A stretch of 64,000 bases of DNA from Mayamaea pseudoterrestris. Lineage: Eukaryota. The notes beneath the pieces were generated by a model that saw only the letters and a list, made by a program, of their open reading frames with translations, was not told where the DNA came from and did not search any database. Shown here one piece after another: positions 46,927-62,120 of this stretch. The DNA is taken from contig BROI01000002.1 in assembly GCA_027923505.1 (NCBI GenBank), positions 1 to 64,000 of the forward strand, written 5' to 3'. Numbering within the stretch: the first letter of the stretch is position 1; each line of letters begins with the position of its first letter. The translations under genes and the position numbers were made by a program.

Positions 46927-47273
46927 GGTGCGCCTCGTCGTTGCCTTTGGTCGCATATGCGGCAGGATTTTGTGCAATCCGATCGAGATTTCTCGGTTGT
47001 CGCGCCATGGTCGATCGAGCGCGCGGGCGCGGGCGGCTGACGTACCATGGCATCGGAGGGTCTGACTTGATGAGTCAGACTTGCTTGCGTGGCCAAAACG
47101 TGTTCGGGTTGGAAGCGCGCGCGACCGGCTGACGTAGTACGTACCGAATGAGCAACACCGTCACGCCGTTTCGGTTTGCTTCTTTCGTCTACTACTTTGT
47201 CCTTTTTTCCCCAAGCCAAGAAGACTTGACGACGACGTTATATTCATAGTAGTAGAGTCATTTACAATACAAA

Positions 47274-49645
47274 ATGACGACAAGCGTTCATGGACTACTA
47301 GCGAAAAGCTTGAGCTTTTCCAGCTTGGTGCTCTTGCTGCAGCTTTCTTCTGCCGCTTCCTCTTCAACTGCTTCTTCCAATTCTATAGCGCCATTGGCAG
47401 TTTCGATTGATGATCCATCCGTTTCGAACTTTGATATACAAAGGGCAGTACATGTCAGAGACTTGCTGACCAGACGACTTTATCATGTGGAGAGTGGAAA
47501 GCGCAAAAGTGACTTTAGCAAGTGGATCAAGAAGCAGCAAGGAGGCGCTCAGGTTTTGTCGACGCATGGAAGGAGCATTCAAACTGACATGGATGACGAT
47601 GCCAAGCAACTACTACAAGCTTCCAGCAAGTCATTGGTAGTCATTAGAAACGATTCTCGCGGTCGTAGAAACGACGATCCGTTTCCGCAAGACAGAAGGA
47701 ACCTTGATATTCCACTCGTTAAACTCGAAGAAAACGACGATTCTTCCAAGACGAATCTACGGATTCAACGCGAGCTCACGGACCGAGCATCAATAATAAT
47801 AAGCACTCATCCAACCCCAAATGCACTGCAACTATCGCTCCGAGCCATTGTGTTATCACTTCGCTTTGGCCCCGTCCTTTCTACGCTTGGTCTTGCCGTC
47901 ATGTTTCCATCCTTTCGCAAACACTACTGGTACTCGTGGTTGACTTACTGCATGGCCAAGTGCGGACCCGCCTGGATCAAGTGGGGACAGTGGAGCAGCA
48001 CCCGCAACGACATGTTTCCGGATGCCTTGTGCGAGTCACTGAGTCGGTTGCATTCCGATGCGCCGGCTCACTCCTGGCGCATTAGCAAGGAAACGTTGGA
48101 GCAGAGTCTACAGCTTGCGCCGAATACCTTGGAACAAGTTTTTGATGAAATTGAAACGACGCCGATTGCGTCGGGAAGTATTGCGCAGGTTCATCGCGCC
48201 GTACTCAGTGGCGAGTTGGTGGCACTCAAGATTCGTCACCCAAAGGTGGAGCAGTTGATGGAACTGGACTTTCGACTCATGGGAATGGCGGCTCGCGTTG
48301 TTGACTATTTGCTAGTCAAGCTCACGGGAGTTGAGAATCAGATTCGCGAGTCAGTCAAGCAGTTTAGTCACACCATGGCGGCGCAGTCATACTTGCACGT
48401 GGAGGCGCACCACTTGGAGGTGTTGAACGACAATTTCAAAAATTGGCCGTCGGTGCGGTTTCCCAGTCCCTTTTACGCGAGTGATGCCGTCATTATTGAA
48501 ACCTTTGAGCCGGGTCGGATTGTGACAAGCATGATTGATGAATATCAACGGGATGCCAATGAGATTATCGTCACGACGACCATGATGCAGGAGAATGAGA
48601 GTGTGGTGCCAGTGAAACGTATGAGTCGCGCCGGACCGACGCAACTGCAGCTGATTGGCGGAGACGACAATGGGGTCGACAATACGCTCGAGTCTGCAGT
48701 GGCTGCGCATGAGATTGCAGAGGATTTGACAATGGCGGACGAGCGAGCCAATCGTACTCCAGCGGCCCATGACTTGATACCTTTGGACTTGGCCGAATTC
48801 ATTGTCACAACCGGGCTGGGGCTGTACTTGAAAATGTTGTTGGTGGACGGGCTCATGCATGCGGACCTTCATCCGTACGTTATTCATGTCGACTCTTGTT
48901 GTGTGAGTTTCTGTGTGATTTGTCTTACTCACACTTGTCCTTTTGTTTCTTGAGCAGTGGCAACATTTTAATTGACGTTGGCCGCACCAAGCAACGCCAG
49001 CACTTGTATAATGAGGGTCTCGAAGTTGCAGACGCTGCTGCAACCGTCGATACTACCACAAGGAAGCGCGGAAGCTTTTTGGGAATCTCGCTCGTTGATG
49101 CCGGCATGGTGGCTCAGTTGACCGAGGAAGAAAGTTCCAATTTTATCGGTCTTTTAGCGAGTTTAGGTGAAGGCAATGGCCGAGACGCTGCCAACTTTGC
49201 GTTAAATTTTTCGCAAGAAAACGCATTGTCCGAGGCCGAGCGAGAAGCGTTTCGACAAGACATGGACCTTTTGTTTCAGGAACGGTGTCGCGGCTACCAT
49301 ACCAACACTGACGTTGGCTTTGTACTGCGCGGCGTTTTGGATCTGATTCGACAACATCGCGTACGCATCGGCGCTAATTACTCGACGCTAGTGATTAACG
49401 CATTGTGCATTGAGAGCTTGGCGCGGAACGTTTGCCCAAGTTATCATGTACTCGACGCTGCCAAACCTCTGCTGCGCACCTACCGAAAACTATGCTACAG
49501 CAAGGACGGAACTCTCAAACCAAATGCGCCAAACAGCAAACGAGTGAAGGCATGGATGGGCGTTATGTACCATTTGAAACGATTTCGCGATAACCGTTTC
49601 TTTAAGAAAGAGGTGAAGCAACGCACGGTGAAGGCGGTGCAGTGA
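47274..49645 (+). CDS. ABC1/UbiB-family atypical kinase (ADCK2-like); exons 47274-48874 and 48958-49645
   Basis: GPAWIKWGQWSSTRNDMF, PIASGSIAQVHRA, VALKIRHP, spliced HADLHPGNIL, LVDAGMV. Confidence 0.92.
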
Positions 49646-50020
49646 GATCGCTTTGCTCGTACTGCTGTATCAAGTTTTAACCACCAATTGTGCTGACAAC
49701 GGAGCCCAACACAACTTGAATAGAATGATTAAAATGGATGTTATGAATAGTGAATAGACTTGTTTTTCATTTTGCTCTCCGTGCATGGACGTACTATAAC
49801 CCCAGTTATTTGGTGAACTGGTTCTTACGATGGTCAAGCCCATACTTGCCTAAATGCACTCGATATGCTGCTGCGTGCTTGCGCACTTTAAACTCGAAAG
49901 CGCCACCTGTACGCTACTCGTACGTCAAGAAAAGAATTGTATTATGACCTCGATCTATCTATTTCTATTGTGTGTGTTATTCTATCTCGCCATATGTGGT
50001 GGTGCGCCACATTGCTTTAT

Positions 50021-53000
50021 TCAAGGCACCATGCTGTCAAAATATGTGAGAACCAAATCTGGTGAGCTGACAGACTTTCGCATATCCTCGTGGGAAACTC
50101 CACCAGTACGACCCAGCTCCTGAATCTTGCGCAAGCCAACACTGGGAGCAACGCCATCAAACTCGCGGGCTTCGTCAGATGATGCCAAACACATAAGCTC
50201 GAATCGCAGTGTTAATCGAACCCGGGCAAACCAAGCAATCCCCTGCTTTTCATTGCGGAGAGGAACCCATTCTTCCAGCTGACCGCCAGCGCATAGACCG
50301 TCAGTGCGTACATCAGCGGTGCCAAGGCAATGATCAACGAGCAGTTTCTTTTCATAGACAGAAACTTGCAGCATGCGCGGCGGTCCTTTGAATAAGACGT
50401 CGCGATCACTGTCGTAACTGCTGCCATCCACCCACGCATCTTCCGGAAGAGGAAATCGAAACCGAGCAACGCTGCCCCACGACGCAGGAGCGTTGGGACC
50501 GGTAGCCTTGCCAAGTTTCACTGGCTGAGTGATCGCAGTATCAAGTGTTCGTGATTTGTTAGTGAGCTCCGCATTGGACCCCTCCCTGCGCAACCGCAAA
50601 AGAGCGTATACCGACATTGATAGCAATCCTCCTGGAGCTGTGAGATTTTTCAAATCTAAAAGCTCAACCTGTACAATGGCCATGAAACGTTGCGGCATTT
50701 CCAATCGCCGGAACAAGGAATTGCGATATAAATGCTGACGAATTGTGTTTTCAAATGGAGCGGGCTCAGCTATGGATCCCCTCAGGAACTGCAAGTCACC
50801 TCCTCCACAAGACTCCCAATTTGGGTGAATTGCAGCAATGGCTTTTGTCGTAACAAAATCTCCTCTTAAACATGTCCAGAGCTCCAGTACATGCGCTTCC
50901 CCGAAAGACCGAATAATACTTTCGGATGCATGTCCAACCCTGGCTAAACTAAATCCGGAAAATTGCTCACGACCCAAAGAAGCGCCAAGTGTTTCACCTT
51001 CCCAGTTTTGCAGTGCTTCAACCTCCCAGGGATCGAGAATTCGGTATCGGGTTCCCTCGTGGACAGGAGTGTTGACTTTATGTTTTAAACGCAAGGTTGA
51101 AAAATCAATGGATTCAATAATACGATTCTTCTCCATAAGCTTCAATCGATCCACAGCTGCATCGGCTGATGCGTCAGTGTTATTCGTCAAAAGCCATTTT
51201 ATTGCTTCCTCCTGACTGAATATAACAACCATGGTGCTGTCACCACCGTCAGCAAGCTTCAGTGTACTAAAGTGGACACCGGAGTCACGTTGAATCATCT
51301 TCCTCAAAATCGAATCGCCGCCGTCTCGAAAGTTCGTCGAACGCGTGTCCAGATGCATATCCGATACAATTGGGACATGCGATGACGGATCGACCAGCTG
51401 CAATGCGAGAATCTCTAATATTTTGCACCAGGAAAGGATGGGGGCAAGGATAGTTTGAGCAACCATTAAACGGTCATGAGTCAAAGCGTCAATCGTGCCT
51501 CTTCTCCAGTCCATCGTTCGCCAGTCATTGTCGTCCTTGTCGCCAACAAGTATCTTTTCAGCGTCTGGCTCGTCGCCATCGTTATCCGGCAGAATGTCAC
51601 GGTAGTCGGCTGCAACAATATCGCTAAACTGCTTTCTTGAAGCAGCCACCACCAAGAGCTCCAAGAGTTTGCCAAATGCGCTCATTGTGTCGCCCACCAA
51701 TCTCACTTTAGAAAAGCACGGATCCAGGTGATTATTACTTAATCCGGAATAGTTCCGAGCAAATGGATCGTTTCGACATGGTACAACTGTATCAGGTGCA
51801 GCCGACCTTAAACAAGCGGCGCGCCCAAGTCCCAATTCGCGAAACAAAACGGCATTTGGAGATGGCTGAGAACCTTCTTCTTTAATTAATCGATCTGTAG
51901 GCGGGAGATCGAATCTGAGAGCAAATGGAAGTGAAGCTGACACTGCCTCCAAGAGACTGATAAGTGTGGTGTGTGGTCCGAATGACCCGCAACGATACCC
52001 AGATTCGGAGAGACGAACGATTGCATGTTGCACACTTTGGTTGTTGCGAGACTTATTCTTCCTAGTGCTCGCAATTCGATTGGGTGTTGTCGCTTCGCTG
52101 TCGGTAAGATCGTCGCCAGAATTATCCGCCCCGGGTTCCTCCAACGTTGGGCTCGCGTCATCTTTCGGTGGAATCAAATTCGTTTTGAAACTGAGTGTGT
52201 ATACTCCGCTATCGCCGGGATGTGGACGAATAATAAAGCAACCCGTCTTCTTGTCATTCAGCAGCCCAGTTGCTTCGGAACGCTTGCATTCGACCAAAAA
52301 TTCCCAGCCGCCACTTGAAACTTTTTCCTTTTGTAAATGCTGCTCCCTACCGACCTCAACGTTGCTCTTTAAGCTAGCCCATAAAATACGACCTGCCTCC
52401 TCGTCGACGCAACAGTCTGGGTTGCTTCGAATCATGGTTTCTATGCATTCATAGTTTCGATTCCAACTGACAACGAGTAGACCGGCTCGAACTCCAACAA
52501 TTGCTTCCTTCAAAGCAATCCCTGACAACGGCAAGCCGCCGCCTCGGTGTAGCCACAAGCAAGTTTCCACTTGATAACTGACACGTGCTGCGTAACGTCG
52601 TATATATTGGGAAGCAACGTGGGCTTTCGATTTTCGCTGGTGGACTAAATCATCAATAGTTATCGCCCACACATTACAATACCCAATCAAATCCTGTGCA
52701 GCGACTCGTAAAATGTCCTCCGAAATGTGTTCGCGATCGACAGCAGCGTTTATCACAACAGCGAGCAACATTCGATGTTGAGAGTGCGAGGCATTTAAAA
52801 ATCGTAACGCAGCCTCGACAACGTAATGGTCTGGGGTGTCGCATGCAGCACATAGTCGATTGAGAGTTTGGCGCACCTGTTGAATAATTTTATGTCCATC
52901 ACATTTCTCCTGAAAGGCTCCGAAAGCGCCAGATGGAAAGTACAAATTGAAATTAACATAGCATAGATCAACACGCGGCTCACGTAAGTCGCCCAGATGT

Positions 53001-56000
53001 GGCGCTAAGACACCAGCGACTTCTCGAACAAACCGACGAGCAGCAGCCTGCACGAGGACCTGCAATGTCCACTCTGACCAAAGTGCGGGAGGGGACGCTA
53101 AACCATTGACTGACGGTAAGTCAAAAGTTGTTGTATCCTCATGTACCCCCAACCGCCCATTTAATGCAGTTGGCATGTCGCTGTCCCCTTCTATTGGTTT
53201 AGTTGGTCTTACAGATTGCGAAATTGCATGATTATCGGCAGCGTGCTCGCGTGGCAGCGTATCATACGAATCGAAAATCGACGATTGCATCTCATTCACC
53301 ACCTGAGATTGAACGAGCGGTTTTGCTTTAGAAAGAGGGATATCAAAGTCGTCAAAAATCGAAGATTGCGCTATGGTTGAACTAGCAACAGCTGTAGGCG
53401 GCTCGACTCTTTGCGGTGGCATATCGAATGAATCGAAGATGCTTGTTTGCACCTGATTAGTAAGTGATGTCGCCGGTACAGCAAGTTTAATTACGTCGTG
53501 ATGTTCTTCTGGTATGTGTTCTTTTCCGAAGGGAAAAAGCATATCAATGGATGCAAGCTCCACGCCTCGACCTTCGAGTGTTTGTGATATCGTCAGCGCC
53601 GCTGCCAACTGCGAACGTCGGCTACCAGCCATTGCTCGTAGCAGCAGCGGAGGAGACAAGTCATCGATCAAAGCGTTCAACTTTCTTGATGCCGAAACAA
53701 CGCCATCTTCCCTGGCACCTCGAGCGAAGTAGCGTTCAAGCACGGCCGGTTCGGCGACACTCAATAGGTCATCAGGACGCACGATGTCAGCACACACCCA
53801 TGTTGCGTCGTCTTTCTTGCCCAACCAGACCAGGCTCAAAGCACTAAACAGCCTGTCAGCTGTAGAAGCAAATGCTCGTTCCACCAAGAGGCTCTGACTG
53901 CTTTTTCCCAATCGCGGCACCCACTCCGCAAAGCTTTCATCTGGTCCAACTATTGGGTTCGATGCTGTGGAATTAACATAACCCCCACCGCCACCTATTG
54001 CTGCCAGATTGAAACTCCCAGCACTCGCAAGTTTATCACTTTCCATGAGGCGCGCCACGAGGAAGGCCAAATCAATGTCTTTCATTTTCGTAGCAATTGT
54101 TGCTACAGCCGCATTCAAAAAGGGTGGTTTTGCCAGGAGGAAAAACGCTGATGCAGCGCGATACTTGCATTTCCTCAATAGGCTGAAGCCATTCTTCTCA
54201 GCTGCTCGTCGACCCTTCTCCGTCGAGAAGTCAAACGTGTTTAAAAACTTGTGAAACTTTCTGCCGTTCTCGGACGAATCAGTGGCAGCAAGATTCCGTA
54301 GGGTCAGTGTCTTTTGCGCAATAATGTAGTAGAGAGCTGACTCCATAATATCGCGCTCAGAACGAAACAAATTCTGCCCAATTTCCTCTGAAATTCGTGC
54401 CAAGGCAGTGTCAGAACGCACCCAAAAGGGTAATCGTAACCTCTTTGCCGTTTTCCAATCCATCTTTTCATTATACGTCCTGCTGAACTTTAGTAGTTGC
54501 GATTGCGAGCAACTTAAGAGTGCTGCTAAGCAGGCTGCAGAAGAAATTTGACGGCTGTCCGCGCCTTGGTTGGGCACTGACATATGCAATCTTGGCGACA
54601 AACCAGGAACCCCAAGCGGAGATTTTGGTGGATACTGAACCTGGTGACTCTCTGGTTGCACGATGTGAAGTGCTTTGATTATGCTGGCGCAGAAAATGAA
54701 ATGTTGTCCGCAAGGGTCAATAAATTGATAGTCATGTGAGTCGACCATGAGCGTGCAAAAACTACGAAGTATATGCATGTCTTCCACGCTTAAAGGCAGA
54801 AGTGGCTGTGGCAAATCGACTGCTTCGAGAGATGGCGAGTATCGCAAAGGCGCAACATACCCAGCATGATCTATTTCTTTCGTGCTACAACAAGCCACCA
54901 AAACCGTCAGAAGCTTTAACATTTTATCCTTTTCAAGCCCAATGTCCGCAGTAGCTCCTGCAGTTAACTCTCTGTCTTTCTCTCCAAAACCTGTATATAT
55001 AAAAAGTGGAGCCGTGTAAAGCCGTCCAGCAAAATTACCTTCTTGAATCGAAAGCCCTTCAGTTGAAAGCCAAAGAAGGAGAGGACGAACACGCTCGCGC
55101 AATGCGTGAAGTGGGCCTCGTGCCTCGGTCATAACACTCGCAATCATAGATTCGGGGTGCCAATCGGCGCAAAGGTAGTCAGATTCGCTTTCAGAGACGT
55201 AGCCAAGCCGCAGCGATCGAGTAAGATGCGAGAACGCTGTGCGCGGGCTCGCAATGTTATAAAAAGTAGTTCCTTGCGACACTTCAGCAGCAGATATAGC
55301 CTCATGAAAAGACTGGTATGACATTCGAATTGCCGGGAGCCACTCCAATCCTTGCCTCGAATAAGCAGTGACATGCCGCTTCGAAAAAACAACCAGAGTC
55401 GGAAATGCATCCAGATAGCCTGAATTGACGAATTCAAAGTCCACAAAATCGTTGTCCGACGATTCTGTTCGAATGCTACTAGGGTGATAGCAAAACGTGC
55501 CTAGCGACAAACAACACTCCGGTTGGCCAACAGTGTCGGAAGTGTAAGGATCAGCCCTCAAAGACCAGACGGTAATTTCCTTTCTGAAACCATCCTCCGT
55601 TGGCATCGTCGCAAGTAGTGTGACATCGAATAAACGAAGTTGTACATTTCTCGAGAGCTCCGACTGGATGCAAAATAAATCGTAATGTTGAAATTTTATG
55701 CTGGGAGATGCGCCAGCATGCAACGAGGCTTGCAAGAGGCTAACGGTACCATCAACATCACAGAGAGCAAGCTCCGTGCGCTCTTGATCGAGACATTTGA
55801 CATCCATTCGCCTTATTTCGCGTTGATTATCCGAATCTTTCTGCCACGAGCCAATATATGAAATCCGCGCTTTTTCACTTGTGTGGAAAAAACGAAGCTC
55901 CAGGTGCACGGCGGAGACGCGGCAAATATAGGTGTAGTATAAAATACAGGATCGCTCAAAGTTCACCTTTGTTTGGCTTCCGTGAGGTACTACAGCAAGT

Positions 56001-59000
56001 TGCAAATTGCCGTCATGTCGCGGTCTCGTGTTACCAGAAACCAACTCTTGTATCGCTTTTTCAAACACAGCGACAACGCTGAAATGCGGCGGAAGAGGTT
56101 CTTGGCAGTCATTTAGAACAGACTCGCTTGCCGCAAACAGGCCATCCGTGTTGCCATTTGAGTCGGCGGGCTTGACGCCAAGAATCTGCTCAGCCGTTCG
56201 ACGCTGCCGTATTCGGGGCGACGGAGGAGGTTGAGGGTCTGACATCCGACGAAATGTAAGCCGCATAGGGTTGCCAACACCTGAAACAGCACCTATGTCT
56301 CGGACAGTGGCGATGATATCATCGAACAATTTCTCCTCGAGGTTGACGTTATTTGCATTGACGAGCTCGTCTCCAAGAGCAATGACACCACACTGTTCGG
56401 CTGGTAAAATGTCCCCGCTGAGTGGGTTTCGTTTGAAGGAGCCTACAATTGCAGGATTGCCATCTTGCTGTACTTCTAATCTTAATCCAAGTCCGAATTC
56501 CGTATCAGGCACAATCGACACCTCGTAAATCTCCCCTACATTGGAAGACATTGTGTTTATCTTCATAATCGGAGAATCTGGAAACACCGCATTTTGGCAC
56601 AGCACGACCGGGCGCTCAACGCTCTCTGGAGAAGCAATTTCAAAGACAATAATAGTTCCGTTGTCAAGCAGAACAATGAGATAATGCGGTCCTCCAACGT
56701 TTTCGCCCTTCCACCATCTCATCTCAACAACAGACCGATTCTTACAAACAGTTGGAGGAAGCCATAGGACAGGCTGCTCTATTGGAACAGAAAGTATGCT
56801 TTCATCTTTAAACCACCGTCGCTCGGTGAGCACTCTAGCAGCTTTTTTAGAATCTACATCTTCTGGCATCCAATGTGACGGTAAGAACATTGCAGGACCA
56901 TGCTTTCTCCACGTGAGAGAAATGAATTTTGATGCTTCCTCGCAGTATTGGGCGATTAGTTGACTGGATTCCAGCTCCATGACGGCTGGCAAGGGTAATC
57001 TGTCGACGTTTCTCTTCTTGCCAGAGATAATGTCTAACTCGTCCAACAAAAATATCGACCTTGTCGGGTTACCAAGCTCCAATGCGGTCCAGTCCTGTTC
57101 GCCCAGGAGCGGAAATTGGAGCGCCAGCAGCTTTCCAGGTTCTGCATGTGCCGCGACAATCCGAATTTCACAAGGCGGACTCTGTGTATTGCTCAAAAGT
57201 CCGTCGGTAAAGGACCCGTCTGCTGCGGTCGTAGAGACGGCCGGACCAGCTGCTAGACCCAGAAACGACATGGCCGATCCACGAATCGTCCCAGTGTGAT
57301 GGTCGGTAGTGACGGAGGAAGCTTCCGAGAGTCGTGGGTTCCATACCGGCCAAATGCCTTCCACGCACAAGTACGAATCGTCATTTCCGCAAAGGATATT
57401 AGGTGAAATCAAACCTACTGGAAGTATTGCCGAAACATTTTCAAACAATGTTGGTATGAATTCGTCAACCCCTCGTTTCAGATATGTTAATCTCGACAGT
57501 CGTATTGCTGGCGTGGCATCTTGAAAAGTAATTTCCGATATCCAGGCACCCGCATTGGAGTAGGGAGTAGCATGATTTGGTATTGATTGATAGTGCTGCC
57601 GTCGACCATCGCTCTCATCCTTTGTATTCCCATCATTCTTGTTCGAGTTATTCAAACTCGGTCGCCGACTCGACGGTGCGCTACTGCTCCGGTACTTGCT
57701 GTTTGACGACTTGGGTTCCAAATCGCCCAATGTAAAAGCGGAAACCCCGTGTATCCAGTCGACGCGCGTTCGAACTGGTGTATCCCACTCCATGAAGCAC
57801 TTCCAACCATTCTGACAAAAGATGCGAGCCGACAATGATTCCTCACAGTACGTCAACAGTAAATCGTTGCCCTCCTGCTGCTTTTGCTGCGGCTTCCTCG
57901 CTCCACACTCACTCGATGTATTGTGACCATGTCCTCGAAACACAAGCCGCGTAACGGGGCTGGGATGCACCAGAAACGGCCCAGGCTTGTAAACGACGCC
58001 AATGGACCGGCTCCGAGACAACAGCGGTGTGTCTTTGATGTTGAATTCGGGCATGGCATCGTTAACGTTTATTGTTTCTGAATCTGCTGCTGCGCCGTCA
58101 GTCACATTTAGAACATGGCGTCGTCGGCCACTTTTTCGCTTATGCTTGGACGACGAAAGCGACCAATCCTTTTCGGACCCATCCTCCCAGTCTCGCACCA
58201 TGACATGTACACCGTAGTTTTCTCCATCGTCATCGTCCACCACCTGCTGCTGCTCATTTGCAAATTGTTGTTTTTTCACCAAGTCGTCGTCGTCGTCATG
58301 ACAAACGACGGCAATCGCATGCGCATCCCCACTCAACTGCGCCACGCGAATCTTGCCAGGCATGCAGGTCATCCACACCACATTGTTGATTGCTGCGTGA
58401 TTATTTTGACTACTAGTTGTAGTGTTATTCATTCGTCGCGACGCAGCATTGGCTGTTGCTGCATTTGCATCCGCTCCGTCCAGTGGTGTCGTATCCAGCA
58501 CCACCAACTGATTGCCATGCGCCAAGAGAATCTTGTAGTCCATGGACAGGCTCACGTTCCACTTTGCGTCAACCTCAGCAGCAGCTGCAGCGTCGCCATG
58601 GTCACCAGCGTCGTCACGGTCGTTTGGAAAGAGTTGCTCCGCCTCCAAGACAATGGAAGTTGCTGCTGCTGGTTGCGAGTCGCTACTAGTGAAGCCAGTA
58701 CCATCACTCTGACCACTACTACTCCTAACATTGTAATAGTGCGGCACCCACTGGTAGCGACCGTAGCACGACTTGGTTGGATCCACCGGAACCGGCAAAA
58801 AGCTGCGCACGCAGCCATTGGCATGCACCAGCACCACTTGCCCCGTGACTGGATGCGCCTTTAATGCCACAATCTTACTGTAATCGCTTCCAGCTGCATT
58901 GCCATCAGTCACGTTTAGTTGCTGCAAGACGAACCGCGTCCGCGCGCAGACTATGTAGACGGACGGATGGTTCGTCGTGCCGAATATGACGGAAACGCCC

Positions 59001-59512
59001 TTGTAGGTAAAGGTAATTGCCAGTGACTGCGGTGGCGGCAGTTTTTGATAGTCATTGTCGCCAGAAACTCGTTGCTCCTGCTCGTCGCGCAACACCTTGT
59101 CCTGCTGCTCTCTCTCGTACTTCTCACGCAGCGCCAAACAGCGTTGCGCCTGACGATGCGCGCGCAGCGTCAATGGATGAACCAACGTGACATTGGAGTG
59201 CTGCTTTTCGTCAGTGCTGCTGCTAGTGCTGCTAATAGCATTGTCCGCCACTCCCAGCTCGTGCGGCGCCATGAGTGATCCACGCGTCGTTTGCTGTTGT
59301 TGCTGCTGCTGCATATTACTACCACTAGCTCCAGCACTTGTTACGCGACGTTCCTCCATGGCCACTGGTCGTGGCGGCAAATTGCTGTTCGATGCTGCTG
59401 ATGCTGATCCTGATGGATTTTGCATGCGATGAAAGCCTTCCGTGTTGCGCGTCCGGCTGGGGTAGCGGGGAGGTGGCGGTGGACTCGCCGAGTGCGTCAG
59501 TCGCTTCTTCAT
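50021..59512 (-). CDS. Rav1/Rabconnectin-3alpha (DMXL)-like RAVE subunit with PDZ, SH2, DEP-like and C2 domains; 3163 aa, intronless
   Basis: Rav1p_C motifs DWKTAKRLRLPFWV...ALYYI...FL..FDFS.EKGRRAAEKNGFSLL...YRAASAFFLL...DIDLAFLVARL. N-terminal WD-like strands (FLVHPSPVTRLVFR). Other domains are described in findings. Confidence 0.85.
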   Translation of the reverse strand: MKKRLTHSASPPPPPRYPSRTRNTEGFHRMQNPSGSASAASNSNLPPRPVAMEERRVTSAGASGSNMQQQQQQQTTRGSLMAPHELGVADNAISSTSSSTDEKQHSNVTLVHPLTLRAHRQAQRCLALREKYEREQQDKVLRDEQEQRVSGDNDYQKLPPPQSLAITFTYKGVSVIFGTTNHPSVYIVCARTRFVLQQLNVTDGNAAGSDYSKIVALKAHPVTGQVVLVHANGCVRSFLPVPVDPTKSCYGRYQWVPHYYNVRSSSGQSDGTGFTSSDSQPAAATSIVLEAEQLFPNDRDDAGDHGDAAAAAEVDAKWNVSLSMDYKILLAHGNQLVVLDTTPLDGADANAATANAASRRMNNTTTSSQNNHAAINNVVWMTCMPGKIRVAQLSGDAHAIAVVCHDDDDDLVKKQQFANEQQQVVDDDDGENYGVHVMVRDWEDGSEKDWSLSSSKHKRKSGRRRHVLNVTDGAAADSETINVNDAMPEFNIKDTPLLSRSRSIGVVYKPGPFLVHPSPVTRLVFRGHGHNTSSECGARKPQQKQQEGNDLLLTYCEESLSARIFCQNGWKCFMEWDTPVRTRVDWIHGVSAFTLGDLEPKSSNSKYRSSSAPSSRRPSLNNSNKNDGNTKDESDGRRQHYQSIPNHATPYSNAGAWISEITFQDATPAIRLSRLTYLKRGVDEFIPTLFENVSAILPVGLISPNILCGNDDSYLCVEGIWPVWNPRLSEASSVTTDHHTGTIRGSAMSFLGLAAGPAVSTTAADGSFTDGLLSNTQSPPCEIRIVAAHAEPGKLLALQFPLLGEQDWTALELGNPTRSIFLLDELDIISGKKRNVDRLPLPAVMELESSQLIAQYCEEASKFISLTWRKHGPAMFLPSHWMPEDVDSKKAARVLTERRWFKDESILSVPIEQPVLWLPPTVCKNRSVVEMRWWKGENVGGPHYLIVLLDNGTIIVFEIASPESVERPVVLCQNAVFPDSPIMKINTMSSNVGEIYEVSIVPDTEFGLGLRLEVQQDGNPAIVGSFKRNPLSGDILPAEQCGVIALGDELVNANNVNLEEKLFDDIIATVRDIGAVSGVGNPMRLTFRRMSDPQPPPSPRIRQRRTAEQILGVKPADSNGNTDGLFAASESVLNDCQEPLPPHFSVVAVFEKAIQELVSGNTRPRHDGNLQLAVVPHGSQTKVNFERSCILYYTYICRVSAVHLELRFFHTSEKARISYIGSWQKDSDNQREIRRMDVKCLDQERTELALCDVDGTVSLLQASLHAGASPSIKFQHYDLFCIQSELSRNVQLRLFDVTLLATMPTEDGFRKEITVWSLRADPYTSDTVGQPECCLSLGTFCYHPSSIRTESSDNDFVDFEFVNSGYLDAFPTLVVFSKRHVTAYSRQGLEWLPAIRMSYQSFHEAISAAEVSQGTTFYNIASPRTAFSHLTRSLRLGYVSESESDYLCADWHPESMIASVMTEARGPLHALRERVRPLLLWLSTEGLSIQEGNFAGRLYTAPLFIYTGFGEKDRELTAGATADIGLEKDKMLKLLTVLVACCSTKEIDHAGYVAPLRYSPSLEAVDLPQPLLPLSVEDMHILRSFCTLMVDSHDYQFIDPCGQHFIFCASIIKALHIVQPESHQVQYPPKSPLGVPGLSPRLHMSVPNQGADSRQISSAACLAALLSCSQSQLLKFSRTYNEKMDWKTAKRLRLPFWVRSDTALARISEEIGQNLFRSERDIMESALYYIIAQKTLTLRNLAATDSSENGRKFHKFLNTFDFSTEKGRRAAEKNGFSLLRKCKYRAASAFFLLAKPPFLNAAVATIATKMKDIDLAFLVARLMESDKLASAGSFNLAAIGGGGGYVNSTASNPIVGPDESFAEWVPRLGKSSQSLLVERAFASTADRLFSALSLVWLGKKDDATWVCADIVRPDDLLSVAEPAVLERYFARGAREDGVVSASRKLNALIDDLSPPLLLRAMAGSRRSQLAAALTISQTLEGRGVELASIDMLFPFGKEHIPEEHHDVIKLAVPATSLTNQVQTSIFDSFDMPPQRVEPPTAVASSTIAQSSIFDDFDIPLSKAKPLVQSQVVNEMQSSIFDSYDTLPREHAADNHAISQSVRPTKPIEGDSDMPTALNGRLGVHEDTTTFDLPSVNGLASPPALWSEWTLQVLVQAAARRFVREVAGVLAPHLGDLREPRVDLCYVNFNLYFPSGAFGAFQEKCDGHKIIQQVRQTLNRLCAACDTPDHYVVEAALRFLNASHSQHRMLLAVVINAAVDREHISEDILRVAAQDLIGYCNVWAITIDDLVHQRKSKAHVASQYIRRYAARVSYQVETCLWLHRGGGLPLSGIALKEAIVGVRAGLLVVSWNRNYECIETMIRSNPDCCVDEEAGRILWASLKSNVEVGREQHLQKEKVSSGGWEFLVECKRSEATGLLNDKKTGCFIIRPHPGDSGVYTLSFKTNLIPPKDDASPTLEEPGADNSGDDLTDSEATTPNRIASTRKNKSRNNQSVQHAIVRLSESGYRCGSFGPHTTLISLLEAVSASLPFALRFDLPPTDRLIKEEGSQPSPNAVLFRELGLGRAACLRSAAPDTVVPCRNDPFARNYSGLSNNHLDPCFSKVRLVGDTMSAFGKLLELLVVAASRKQFSDIVAADYRDILPDNDGDEPDAEKILVGDKDDNDWRTMDWRRGTIDALTHDRLMVAQTILAPILSWCKILEILALQLVDPSSHVPIVSDMHLDTRSTNFRDGGDSILRKMIQRDSGVHFSTLKLADGGDSTMVVIFSQEEAIKWLLTNNTDASADAAVDRLKLMEKNRIIESIDFSTLRLKHKVNTPVHEGTRYRILDPWEVEALQNWEGETLGASLGREQFSGFSLARVGHASESIIRSFGEAHVLELWTCLRGDFVTTKAIAAIHPNWESCGGGDLQFLRGSIAEPAPFENTIRQHLYRNSLFRRLEMPQRFMAIVQVELLDLKNLTAPGGLLSMSVYALLRLRREGSNAELTNKSRTLDTAITQPVKLGKATGPNAPASWGSVARFRFPLPEDAWVDGSSYDSDRDVLFKGPPRMLQVSVYEKKLLVDHCLGTADVRTDGLCAGGQLEEWVPLRNEKQGIAWFARVRLTLRFELMCLASSDEAREFDGVAPSVGLRKIQELGRTGGVSHEDMRKSVSSPDLVLTYFDSMVP

Positions 59513-59994
59513 GGTAGTACAATATGCGAATTAGAGAAATTTGGCTAGTATATCTACAAGAGAATCAAAGTTGGTGTATATCTTGCCTTTGTTGTTGTCG
59601 TTTGGCTGTGATGTTTGGCCATCGTCGAGAAGGCCAACGATCAAGAAACGTTACTTGGCGTTAGGGCTTGGCTAAGGTCGTTCTGGCTGCTTTTTCTTCT
59701 CGGCTACAAGTAGAGTAAGTTTCTTTTCCATCTATACCGGTACTGTACTGTAAATGATATGAGAAACTGCAACTAATCGAAGCAAGACCAATTGCTAACA
59801 TGAAAATATAAGTTACATTTTTGCTTGGCAAACCACGAATAGCTAGAGACAGTCGGCGCGCGCGCACAAGTGCGTCACTCCACGACTCGTCGGTTGACAC
59901 GGACGACGGACAAACCGATCGACGGTGAAGCCATCGACAGGAGGCGCGCGAGAGAGCCATGGGGAGTCGACCACAGCAGCAGCCGCAAGCCAAA

Positions 59995-60027
59995 CAGCAA
60001 CTACAGCAACTACTACAGCAACTACAG
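59995..60027 (+). repeat. Short imperfect (CAGCAACTA)n tandem repeat upstream of CK1
   Basis: cagcaactacagcaactactacagcaactacag read directly from the sequence. Confidence 0.7.
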
Positions 60028-60245
60028 TCACAAAGAAGGCGGCCTACCAATTTATACTGCAGTTCGCATCGCTACGTAGTTGCTAGAAGAAATACGAGGA
60101 GATTGATTAGCGTTGAACCATCGATCTAATAATAATTTAACGACGAGAACCTTGGCTCGCTCCACCAACCGCTTCATTCGTTTTCTCTGAAACAAAATTA
60201 CATTGAGACGCAACTAGTACTGATACTACTGTTACTCATTAAATA

Positions 60246-61824
60246 ATGGAACTCCGCGTCGGCCGCAAGTATCGCTTGGGCCGCAAGATTGGCTCCGGAA
60301 GCTTTGGAGACATTTACTTGGGCACCAACATGACCACGGGCGAGGAGGTTGCCATTAAATTGGAAAGCGTCAAGACCAAGCATCCGCAGCTACTGTATGA
60401 AAGCAAGATTTATCGCATTCTACATGGGGGATGTAAGTGAATTATTGTAGCAATATTGATGAATTTGGAGGGGTTGGAGTGTTAAAAGTTGAGCGATTGA
60501 GAAGAGAGAGGTGGACAATGAGCGGTTCAATCTTAATGTTTCATTGCGACGTTGTAACTATCTTTCTCGTATTCATTGCCCAAATATAAACTCATCCACT
60601 ACGTTTCTTTTGTTATCGCAGTGGGTATCCCAAACGTTCGTTGGTACGGCATCGAGGGCGACTACAATGTCATGGTGCTCGACTTGCTTGGGCCGTCGTT
60701 GGAGGATTTGTTCAACTACTGCGGACGGCGGTTTCAGCTCAAGACGGTGCTCATGCTGGCGGATCAGTTGCTTTCGAGACTAGAGTATGTTCATACCAAG
60801 GTAAGAGAGAAAGAGATTTAATAGAGCAGGCTGAAGCATTTTTACTTGTTCTTGGAGGTTGGAGGACGCGCGTTACGAAGCATTTCCAATCGTTTCTTCT
60901 ATTTCGTTGCACTCGTCTCACTTGTCATATTTTATATCCATTCCTTTGTTTTCATAGTCATTTATTCATCGGGACGTCAAGCCGGATAATTTTTTGATTG
61001 GTCTCGGCAAGCGGCAATCGGTGATTCACATTATTGATTTTGGTTTGGCCAAAAAGTATCGCGACCCTCGCTCCCACCAGCACATTCCCTACCGCGAAAA
61101 TAAGAATTTGACGGGAACGGCTCGATACGCATCCATCAATACGCACATTGGCATTGAGCAGTCTCGTCGAGACGATTTGGAGTCACTTGGCTACGTGCTC
61201 ATGTACTTTATTCGCGGCTCGTTGCCGTGGCAGGGACTCAAGGCGAATACCAAGAAGCAAAAGTATGAGCGCATCATGGATCGCAAAATGTCTACGTCGA
61301 CGGAGCAGCTTTGCAAGGGCTACCCGACGGAGTTTAGATCTTACTTTGAGTACTGCCGGAGCTTGCGGTTTGAGGATCGACCCGATTATGCGTATTTGAA
61401 GCGACTGTTCAAGGAGCTCTTTTACCGCAAGGGTTTTCAGTACGACAATATGTTTGACTGGACGGTGCTGAACTTGCAGCAAGAGCGAGCGCGATTGCCG
61501 CCGGAGCGACCGTTTGCCGCTGCAGCTCCCGACTTGGACGATGCTGGTCGTCGCCAGCAGCAACAGCAGCAGCAAGCTGCCGAGGAGCGAGAGCGCAGCC
61601 GCAGTAGCAACCATGAGCACATTGCCGCGCCTGCAATGGCGGGTGCTCCTGGCTCGCAGAACAGAGGCTATGGATCACAGCAGCATGTGGGATCGCAGCA
61701 CAATTTTAGCGTCCAAGGTTCCCAGCAGCAACAGCAGCAACCAGGAGCGTTGCAGGTGCCACCGACGTATGCGAGTCAGCATGGATCGCAGCAGGCTGTT
61801 CCGGATATTGGAGGCGGGCTTTAG
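60246..61824 (+). CDS. CK1: Casein kinase 1 (delta/epsilon-like); exons 60246-60432, 60622-60800, 60958-61824
   Basis: [72 protein letters not shown]-rich tail. Confidence 0.97.
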
Positions 61825-62120
61825 GGTTAAAGCGTGTTGGAGTTGGATGATGGAAGCCGGGTAAGTTAGACGACGGTCGGCCCGGGTGACGAAGCTGGAC
61901 GAATGAATGGCGTCCGAATAAGTTGATTAATGAATTATTGTACAAGATGGATGTCGCGAAATACAACGAGGAATATGGCGTGGTGACGAGGGATATACGA
62001 AACATTGAAGTAAATTGCACTTTATATATTTGTCAATTGCCGTTGGCCACGCAGCGGGTACAGTAGCGTTTGTCAAGTTAAAACGGCGCCATTGAAGTAA
62101 CAGCAGCTGCAATACGCCGC

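Follow-up and report, generated by a model that had tools for sequence, protein, structure and literature searches.

One of the questions raised by contig BROI01000002.1 of the diatom Mayamaea pseudoterrestris (assembly GCA_027923505.1) regards what an assembly factor of the vacuolar ATPase (V-ATPase) does with four extra docking domains. In this paper we looked at the first 64,000 nucleotides of this contig (the window), where a single open reading frame (ORF) on the minus strand encodes a protein of 3163 amino acids. Rav1/DMXL is the scaffold of the RAVE/rabconnectin-3 complex, through which the V1 ATPase sector is rejoined to the V0 sector in the membrane. Judged from its sequence, the ORF encodes a diatom orthologue of Rav1/DMXL in which the Rav1 solenoid core is retained. 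A PDZ domain was gained in the N-terminal half, as well as a C-terminal extension of ~760 residues that consists of an SH2 domain, a unit of three domains (DEP, MID and C2) and a tyrosine-containing tail. We hold the identity as Rav1/DMXL, together with this architecture, to be highly probable. A sequence-only reading of the window had placed five modules (Rav1p_C, PDZ, SH2, DEP and C2) in one ORF of 3163 amino acids at 50021-59512 (minus strand); the coordinates and length of the ORF proved exact and all five modules lie within a few codons of the positions given there. The features, from the N-terminal to the C-terminal, are:

50021..59512, minus strand: whole ORF, diatom Rav1/DMXL homologue; 3163 codons plus stop, uninterrupted
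56528..59032, minus strand: conserved N-terminal region (residues 161-995), presumed β-propeller part; from the conservation profile and invariant columns
56243..56527, minus strand: PDZ domain (residues 996-1090), in which the carboxylate-binding loop G-L-G-L stands at 1007-1010; from the family profile
54032..54571, minus strand: Rav1p_C core (residues 1648-1827), part of the α-solenoid; from Pfam and the match to the Rav1 structure
54095..54211, minus strand: equivalent of the yeast Rav1 helices 1012-1050 (residues 1768-1806); from the alignment
53261..53443, minus strand: three S-I-F-D-[SD]-[FY]-D repeats (residues 2024, 2051 and 2078; to 2084) with a 27-residue period
51908..52306, minus strand: SH2 domain (residues 2403-2535), split by a variable acidic insert at ~2446-2490; from Pfam and the profile
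51032..51340, minus strand: DEP-fold domain (residues 2725-2827); from the AlphaFold (AF2) model and VIA-align
50693..51031, minus strand: MID, a conserved α/β domain (residues 2828-2940) between DEP and C2; a high-confidence part of the model
50186..50692, minus strand: C2 domain (residues 2941-3109), apparently without canonical Ca2+ ligands; from Foldseek and VIA-align
50024..50143, minus strand: conserved tail (residues 3124-3163), S-x-S-[ST]-P-D...Y-F-[DE]-S-M-V, in which Tyr3157 is invariant

The Retained Rav1 Core

The Pfam family Rav1p_C (PF12234) matches the protein with an E-value of 5.3e-30 (104.8 bits, where the cut-off is 27), and all 15 family members have it. The yeast Rav1 structure 9cop_x is matched at E 1.1e-9 by the single sequence and at E 1.4e-28 by the family profile. 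The Pfam value and the profile value bear out the Rav1/DMXL identity and the Rav1p_C core that had been read from the sequence.

In the yeast RAVE-V1 structure, V1 is contacted solely via three Rav1 helices at residues 1012-1050, which bind V1 subunit A through L1016, F1020, L1023 and F1035 (PMC11648922). Aligned to these residues, three of the four V1-A contacts are identical in the diatom protein, with F1020, L1023 and F1035 at F1776, L1779 and F1791. The region of the V1-A-binding helices (residues 1761-1800) is also the best-conserved central window of the protein, with an identity of 0.69. By analogy with yeast Rav1 (PMC11648922), residues 161-995 are presumed to be the β-propeller part. 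Pfam found no WD40 repeat in the 3163-residue protein; the oomycete relatives show weak WD40-type matches.

The Added Domains

We assigned the PDZ, SH2, DEP and C2 domains from family profiles and one predicted model. In a search of the Protein Data Bank (PDB) with the single sequence (phmmer), the PDZ region matched the GRIP PDZ domain weakly (E 0.02). A profile of 20 family sequences matched the same domain at E 1.2e-14, together with 223 distinct PDZ-containing sequences at E<=0.1, and Pfam PDZ is found in 10 of the 15 family members (best 1.2e-5). The loop F-G-L-G-L-R-L at 1006-1012, in which G1007 and G1009 are invariant, aligns to G-F-G-I of GRIP. The profile match and this carboxylate loop confirm the PDZ-like unit that was first seen in the sequence.

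Pfam SH2 is found in all 15 family members (best 2.2e-6), and relatives reach up to 33.8 bits against the cut-off of 21. The SH2 family profile matched the SH2 domain of SHP2 at E 8.3e-8, with 204 PDB sequences at E<=1. R2429, in F-I-I-R-P-H, aligns to the FLVR-type arginine of SHP2 (F-L-A-R-P-S) and H2496 aligns to the β-D histidine; none of R2411, R2429 and H2496 varies among the 15 sequences. With the SHP2 match and the invariant FLVR arginine, the SH2-like unit of the sequence-only reading can be taken as an SH2 domain. SH2 domains are rare outside animals and their relatives and the amoebozoans, and the domain stands here, well formed by its profile, in an unexpected protein.

The C-terminal part was modeled twice, once as the last 784 residues and once as residues 2725-3120. 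The second AF2 model, built with 51 sequences, has a predicted local distance difference test (pLDDT) score of 91.5 and a predicted template modelling (pTM) score of 0.90, and due to the latter DEP, MID (113 residues) and C2 are predicted to form one rigid unit. In the DEP part the model elements are a helix at 9-16, strands at 25-31 and 34-42, helices at 43-52 and 59-71 and a strand at 75-78. VIA-align of the DEP-MID-C2 model placed a P-Rex1 DEP domain first with a Z-score of 9.2 (root-mean-square deviation 2.9, 83 residues aligned), and further DEP matches were P-Rex1 (Z 8.7), pleckstrin (7.5), DEPTOR (7.4), pleckstrin-2 (6.9) and Dishevelled (6.8). In six matches the alignment begins at model residue 1 or 2, and each of these six is a DEP domain. 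The DEP profile gave four matches in the PDB, of which three are DEPTOR DEP chains (E 0.0042, 0.0052 and 0.029) and the fourth is an unrelated toxin chain (2.3). The DEP-like unit, which had been named tentatively, is thus a DEP fold by its model, with Z 6.8-9.2 to six DEP entries.

MID gave less to work with. The MID profile had no PDB match at E<=10, and in the ESM Atlas it matched unannotated bacterial clusters (at 0.91), which provide no lead. In the VIA-align search of the whole unit the list is filled by C2 matches, so that MID was barely probed there. MID accompanies C2 in non-diatom stramenopiles.

Foldseek searches of the PDB at E<=1e-3 returned 117 matches for the 784-residue model and 112 for the second model, and the top ones are all C2 domains; for the second model the best E-value is 1.3e-6 and the TM-score to the target is up to 0.68. 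In the 784-residue model it was the C2 part alone that gave matches. VIA-align gave Z 9.1 to the CEP120 C2C domain over 133 aligned residues. Pfam C2 appears weakly in one of the 15 diatom members (0.082), and at the homologous site of oomycete relatives it exceeds the cut-off of 22, with 30.5, 29.0 and 28.5 bits. The C2 β-sandwich fold found by Foldseek and VIA-align agrees with the C-terminal C2 that the earlier reading had described. Nowhere in the protein is conservation higher than in its last 240 residues.

The same reading had also suggested a Ca2+ input through this domain, and that part is doubtful because E-K-K (E3054, K3055 and K3056, all invariant) replaces D-x-D in C2 loop 3. The Ca2+-coordinating aspartates, which are a feature of the Ca2+-dependent subclass and not of the fold as such, are absent from this loop. 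The segment V-Y-E-K-K aligns with V-Y-D-W-D of otoferlin and with V-W-N-K-G of Munc13 C2A, and the C2A domain of Munc13 is Ca2+-independent.

Linker Repeats and C-Terminal Tail

Between the solenoid and the SH2 domain lies an otherwise variable linker, in which the three SIFD repeats are found. At least one repeat is present in 109 of the 111 long diatom homologues, with up to nine copies, and one copy is present in a pelagophyte protein; S2024, I2025, F2026 and related positions are invariant. By their sequence the repeats look like docking motifs for a partner, possibly FFAT-like motifs or motifs that bind adaptor ears. A similar motif is Y-F-D-S-M at the C-terminal.

Conservation of the tail continues up to the final residues. 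The commonest ending in the diatom proteins is YFESMVY (27 of 111), and our protein ends with YFDSMVP. Such a tail may act as a PDZ ligand of class II, since the M-V-Y ending fits this class, whereas the M-V-P ending of our protein does not. A complex prediction of the PDZ domain with the protein's own 40-residue tail scored 0.01, which is evidence neither way.

Distribution and Origin

With the C-terminal 784 residues as query, 135 long proteins were found at E<=1e-3. All 120 that were listed carry PF12234, and every named one among them is from a pennate or centric diatom (16 diatom sources). In all 111 diatom homologues of at least 2800 amino acids, the PDZ domain, the Rav1 core, SH2, DEP, MID and C2 are present and colinear. 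The segment hidden Markov models (HMMs) used here were built from alignments of the family itself, and due to this the 111 of 111 is a measure of conservation and not of independent domain identity. An exhaustive phmmer search of 1.84 billion representatives gave 169 proteins (clusters) at E<=1e-3. The DEP/MID/C2 unit seems to be confined to Rav1 proteins of stramenopiles; among the carriers of the C-terminal module that were looked up, every named one is a stramenopile (five lineages checked), in line with the specificity to this group that had been proposed from the sequence.

The architecture that contains SH2 extends to bolidophytes, pelagophytes, dictyochophytes and chrysophytes. Outside the diatoms the following segments were detected:

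Triparma: Rav1 core, SH2, DEP, MID and C2
Octactis: SH2, DEP, MID and C2
Chrysophaeum and Pelagophyceae sp.: Rav1 core, SH2 and C2
Epipyxis: SH2, MID and C2
Chrysoparadoxa: DEP, MID and C2
Plasmopara: Rav1 core and C2

The Rav1 core and C2 were also detected in Phytophthora and Globisporangium. The oomycete proteins (2458-2787 amino acids) are named "RAVE complex protein Rav1 / DmX-like protein 1" in Plasmopara, Phytophthora and Globisporangium, and they have the Rav1p_C core (E 1e-40 to 1e-48) in common with the diatom protein, as well as a C-terminal C2 in the corresponding place. Three of four exceed the cut-off of Pfam C2, and weak PDZ matches lie near residue 600. They differ from the diatom protein in that no SIFDSFD repeats and no YFESMVY tail were detected, and neither Pfam nor the segment HMMs detected SH2 in the oomycete homologues. 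Among the oomycete-like proteins DEP was detected only in P0231 (2301 amino acids), which combines PDZ and the Rav1 core with DEP and C2; the closest named relatives are oomycete proteins, aligned over 89-100% of its DEP-to-C2 region.

Across relatives, the diatom architecture is thus kept as a full set in all 111 long diatom proteins and is only partial in the oomycetes (C2 and weak PDZ). From these sequences the elaboration of Rav1 is stramenopile-wide and layered rather than one diatom invention. SH2 was observed in ochrophytes only, and in this limited sample we infer that PDZ and DEP-C2 may be old in stramenopiles, with SH2 added in ochrophytes.

Four metagenome ORF calls of 1211-1282 amino acids (P0149, P0161, P0175 and P0181) consist of SH2-MID-C2 with N-terminal parts unlike the diatom protein. 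Of the 16 members of the P0149 cluster, eight are of 1212 amino acids and three more of 1188-1198, and its first 240 residues are without similarity to the diatom protein. These calls of ~1200 amino acids could be pieces of Rav1-like genes limited to an exon, or else a C-terminal cassette that stands alone in some non-diatom lineage.

Comparison with Known Proteins

As described, yeast Rav1 is a protein of 1357 amino acids with two propellers, a solenoid and a disordered tail (PMC11648922). It shares with the diatom protein the homologous Rav1p_C/α-solenoid core and the V1-A-binding helices (9cop chain x). The diatom protein is 3163 amino acids long, and its PDZ insert, SIFDSFD repeats, SH2, DEP, MID and C2 are absent from the description given there. 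The animal DMXL1 and DMXL2 are likewise large (~3000 amino acids), with a central Rav1-like region and flanks, and by homology they are V-ATPase assembly scaffolds. Rabconnectin-3 alpha carries WD40 repeats near its C-terminal, according to PMC8264551, whereas the diatom C-terminal is SH2-DEP-MID-C2. In these descriptions neither Rav1 nor rabconnectin-3 alpha includes PDZ, SH2, DEP or C2, which is consistent with the claim of the sequence-only reading that the yeast and animal versions lack these modules.

The DEP fold is the same as in P-Rex1, Dishevelled, DEPTOR and pleckstrin, but the proteins around it are unrelated and there is no membership in the Pfam family here. P-Rex1 and Dishevelled also pair DEP with PDZ. 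The packing of DEP against C2 through MID is a feature of the diatom protein when compared with these four. The C2 β-sandwich is the same as in Munc13-1 C2A, CEP120 C2C, cPLA2, NEDD4L and the Itch C2, with a sequence identity of only 8-19%, and differs from them by long inserted loops (187 residues compared with ~130). The sequence of loop 3 in Munc13 C2A resembles that of the diatom C2.

Full-text searches found no paper on a Rav1/DMXL protein with SH2, PDZ, DEP or C2 in stramenopiles, although a 2011 survey of SH2 proteins in eukaryotes may mention it. Term look-up in PMC3507883, PMC2705460 and PMC7972479 gave no mention of the architecture. The sequence-only reading knew of no description either, yet the architecture already surfaces in automatic database names such as "PDZ domain-containing protein", "SH2 domain-containing protein", "C2 domain-containing protein" and "DmX-like protein 1".

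Possible Function of the Added Domains

In yeast, the compartment at which V-ATPase is assembled is chosen through recognition of the V0 a-subunit isoform. The domain content of the diatom protein suggests another possible mechanism, which we regard as reasonably probable when taken as a whole, namely a compartment-directed V-ATPase assembly via docking modules. The protein would still bind V1 and promote V1-V0 assembly. DEP and C2 are two classes of membrane-binding module, and the DEP-C2 unit would tether the assembly factor to a particular acidic-lipid membrane or to a receptor, probably without calcium. The SH2 domain, with its intact phosphate-binding arginines, would dock a phosphorylated partner and the PDZ domain, with its intact carboxylate loop, would dock the C-terminal tail of a partner. 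Jointly these modules would select the compartments at which V-ATPase is assembled, and might also gate the assembly there.

Several observations weigh against this reading. Of the yeast contacts given in PMC11648922, the fourth V1-A contact, L1016, aligns to E1772 in the diatom protein. With this protein alone Pfam gives no PDZ match at E<=1, reports no C2, and gives SH2 at E 0.0026 with 18.3 bits, which is under the cut-off of 21. Pfam DEP (PF00610) is not found at E<=1 in this protein, nor at E<=0.1 in the 15 members, and the DEP Z-scores of 7-9 are in the middling range for VIA-align. The 784-residue model has an overall pLDDT of 49.6 and of 41-54 in the SH2 part, which is too low to show the SH2 fold. 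As for the SH2 ligand, classical tyrosine kinases are not known from diatoms.

One alternative is that the protein is a signal-integrating hub, in which a phosphopeptide bound by SH2, a C-terminal peptide bound by PDZ and Ca2+ or lipid bound by C2 would switch V-ATPase assembly on and off. The phosphate-binding residues of SH2 and the carboxylate loop of PDZ are intact and invariant, and the conserved tail holds the invariant Tyr3157 and an S-[ST]-P site. RAVE and rabconnectin-3 are also described as signal-dependent regulators in yeast and animals (PMC8264551). However, the C2 domain has E-K-K in place of D-x-D, and domain content alone cannot tell regulated from constitutive binding; a constitutive targeting to a membrane or a partner fits the same data. 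We consider the hub unlikely. The interpretation of the sequence-only reading stands in its domain calls and in the Rav1/DMXL identity, with the Ca2+ input doubtful.

A second alternative, which we find quite unlikely, is that a neofunctionalised Rav1-like scaffold mainly serves another membrane-traffic or signalling pathway and not V-ATPase assembly. A parallel is rabconnectin-3, which is named for its binding to the Rab3 guanine nucleotide exchange factor (GEF) and GTPase-activating protein (GAP). More than half of the diatom protein is outside anything common to yeast Rav1, parts that do not belong to RAVE (C2 and the tail) are the most conserved, and one V1-A contact residue is changed. 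Yet the V1-A-binding helices have the top conservation in the central part, with three of the four contacts identical, and the oomycete relatives with Rav1p_C at E 1e-40 to 1e-48 share the C2 domain, from which it follows that the additions coexist with a canonical core.

A more specific option, which we hold to be very unlikely, is a phospho-switch in the V-ATPase assembly factor itself, by which ochrophyte algae would control the acidification of organelles. Phosphosites are engaged by SH2 domains in Src and STAT, and in a similar way Tyr3157 (in Y-F-[DE]-S-M) or a phosphosite of a partner could engage the protein's own SH2 domain, either within or between molecules. This would release or expose the DEP-C2 anchor and the PDZ domain, and V1 would be delivered to the silica-deposition or plastid-surrounding membranes on cue only. 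If true, this would mean an SH2 circuit of the phosphotyrosine type in a lineage from which classical tyrosine kinases are not known.

Compartment-directed assembly through docking domains, which we favor over these options, would bear on processes that are specific to diatoms. V-ATPase acidifies the silica deposition vesicle of diatoms (PMC7972479), and V-ATPase around the plastid is reported to enhance photosynthesis in a preprint (10.1101/2022.05.26.493626). In the literature we found nothing on V-ATPase assembly or targeting in these algae. The extra domains suggest that this algal group controls the place and time of compartment acidification in its own way. Four extra and strongly conserved docking domains on Rav1/DMXL are a concrete handle that can be tested by mutants, and a compact DEP/MID/C2 unit is now defined.

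Gene Model and Transcript Evidence

Contigs of four public runs, which are not recorded as RNA, were placed on 47000-62000, where they do not cover every base. In runs X2-X4 there are GT..AG joints in both flanking genes (48874/48958, 60432/60622 and 60798/60956), which indicates that these runs contain spliced sequence that is similar to complementary DNA (cDNA). The ORF had been described as intronless, and the contigs of four out of four runs have no splice joint in it; as the coverage is incomplete this is not a proof. The contig evidence for one unspliced transcript over the 3163-residue ORF is supportive but not decisive. Indels within the ORF across the runs are multiples of three, except for one low-depth single-base insertion, and the base composition over 50021-59512 is unremarkable.

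It is highly improbable that the architecture is a gene-model artefact, in which adjacent Rav1 and SH2-DEP-C2 genes are read as one or separate products arise from the messenger RNA. In favor of it, several metagenome ORFs of ~1200 amino acids (such as the P0149 cluster) hold SH2-MID-C2 only. Against it, no stop codon interrupts the 9.5 kb, and all 111 long diatom proteins have the domains colinear in this order, as do the Triparma, Chrysophaeum and oomycete gene models. Other short calls, such as P0142, are colinear from the Rav1p_C region to C2 as fragments would be, and runs with splicing in the neighbouring genes give unspliced contigs on the ORF. Based on the stop-free 9.5 kb, the colinear order and the unspliced contigs we rejected the reading as a fused gene.

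The database gene call P0002 (2803 amino acids) is identical to the ORF but begins at Met361, and so it drops 360 residues (58430-59512). When aligned with 14 full-length homologues, the protein shows conservation at residues 161-240, with invariant R191, Q197, G224 and P240. Because of this conservation the true start should be upstream of residue 161, and the longer ORF is a better model than P0002. Residues 1-160 are poorly conserved and of low complexity, with a poly-Gln and Ser/Ala-rich far N-terminal, and an X2 contig that covers 58971-59593 runs across Met1. The start codon lies somewhere between Met1 and Met81. In the far N-terminal there are in-frame indel variants between the runs at 58243, 58244 and 59324.

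Flanking Genes

Both flanking genes are on the plus strand. The first (47274-49645) codes for a domain like that of the ABC1 atypical kinases (Pfam E 1.2e-33), and its 83-base GT..AG intron at 48875-48957 is supported by the contigs of three runs. The second (60246-61824) has a partial match to a protein-kinase domain (Pfam E 3.1e-6, under the cut-off) and two GT..AG introns, at 60433-60621 and at about 60799-60955.

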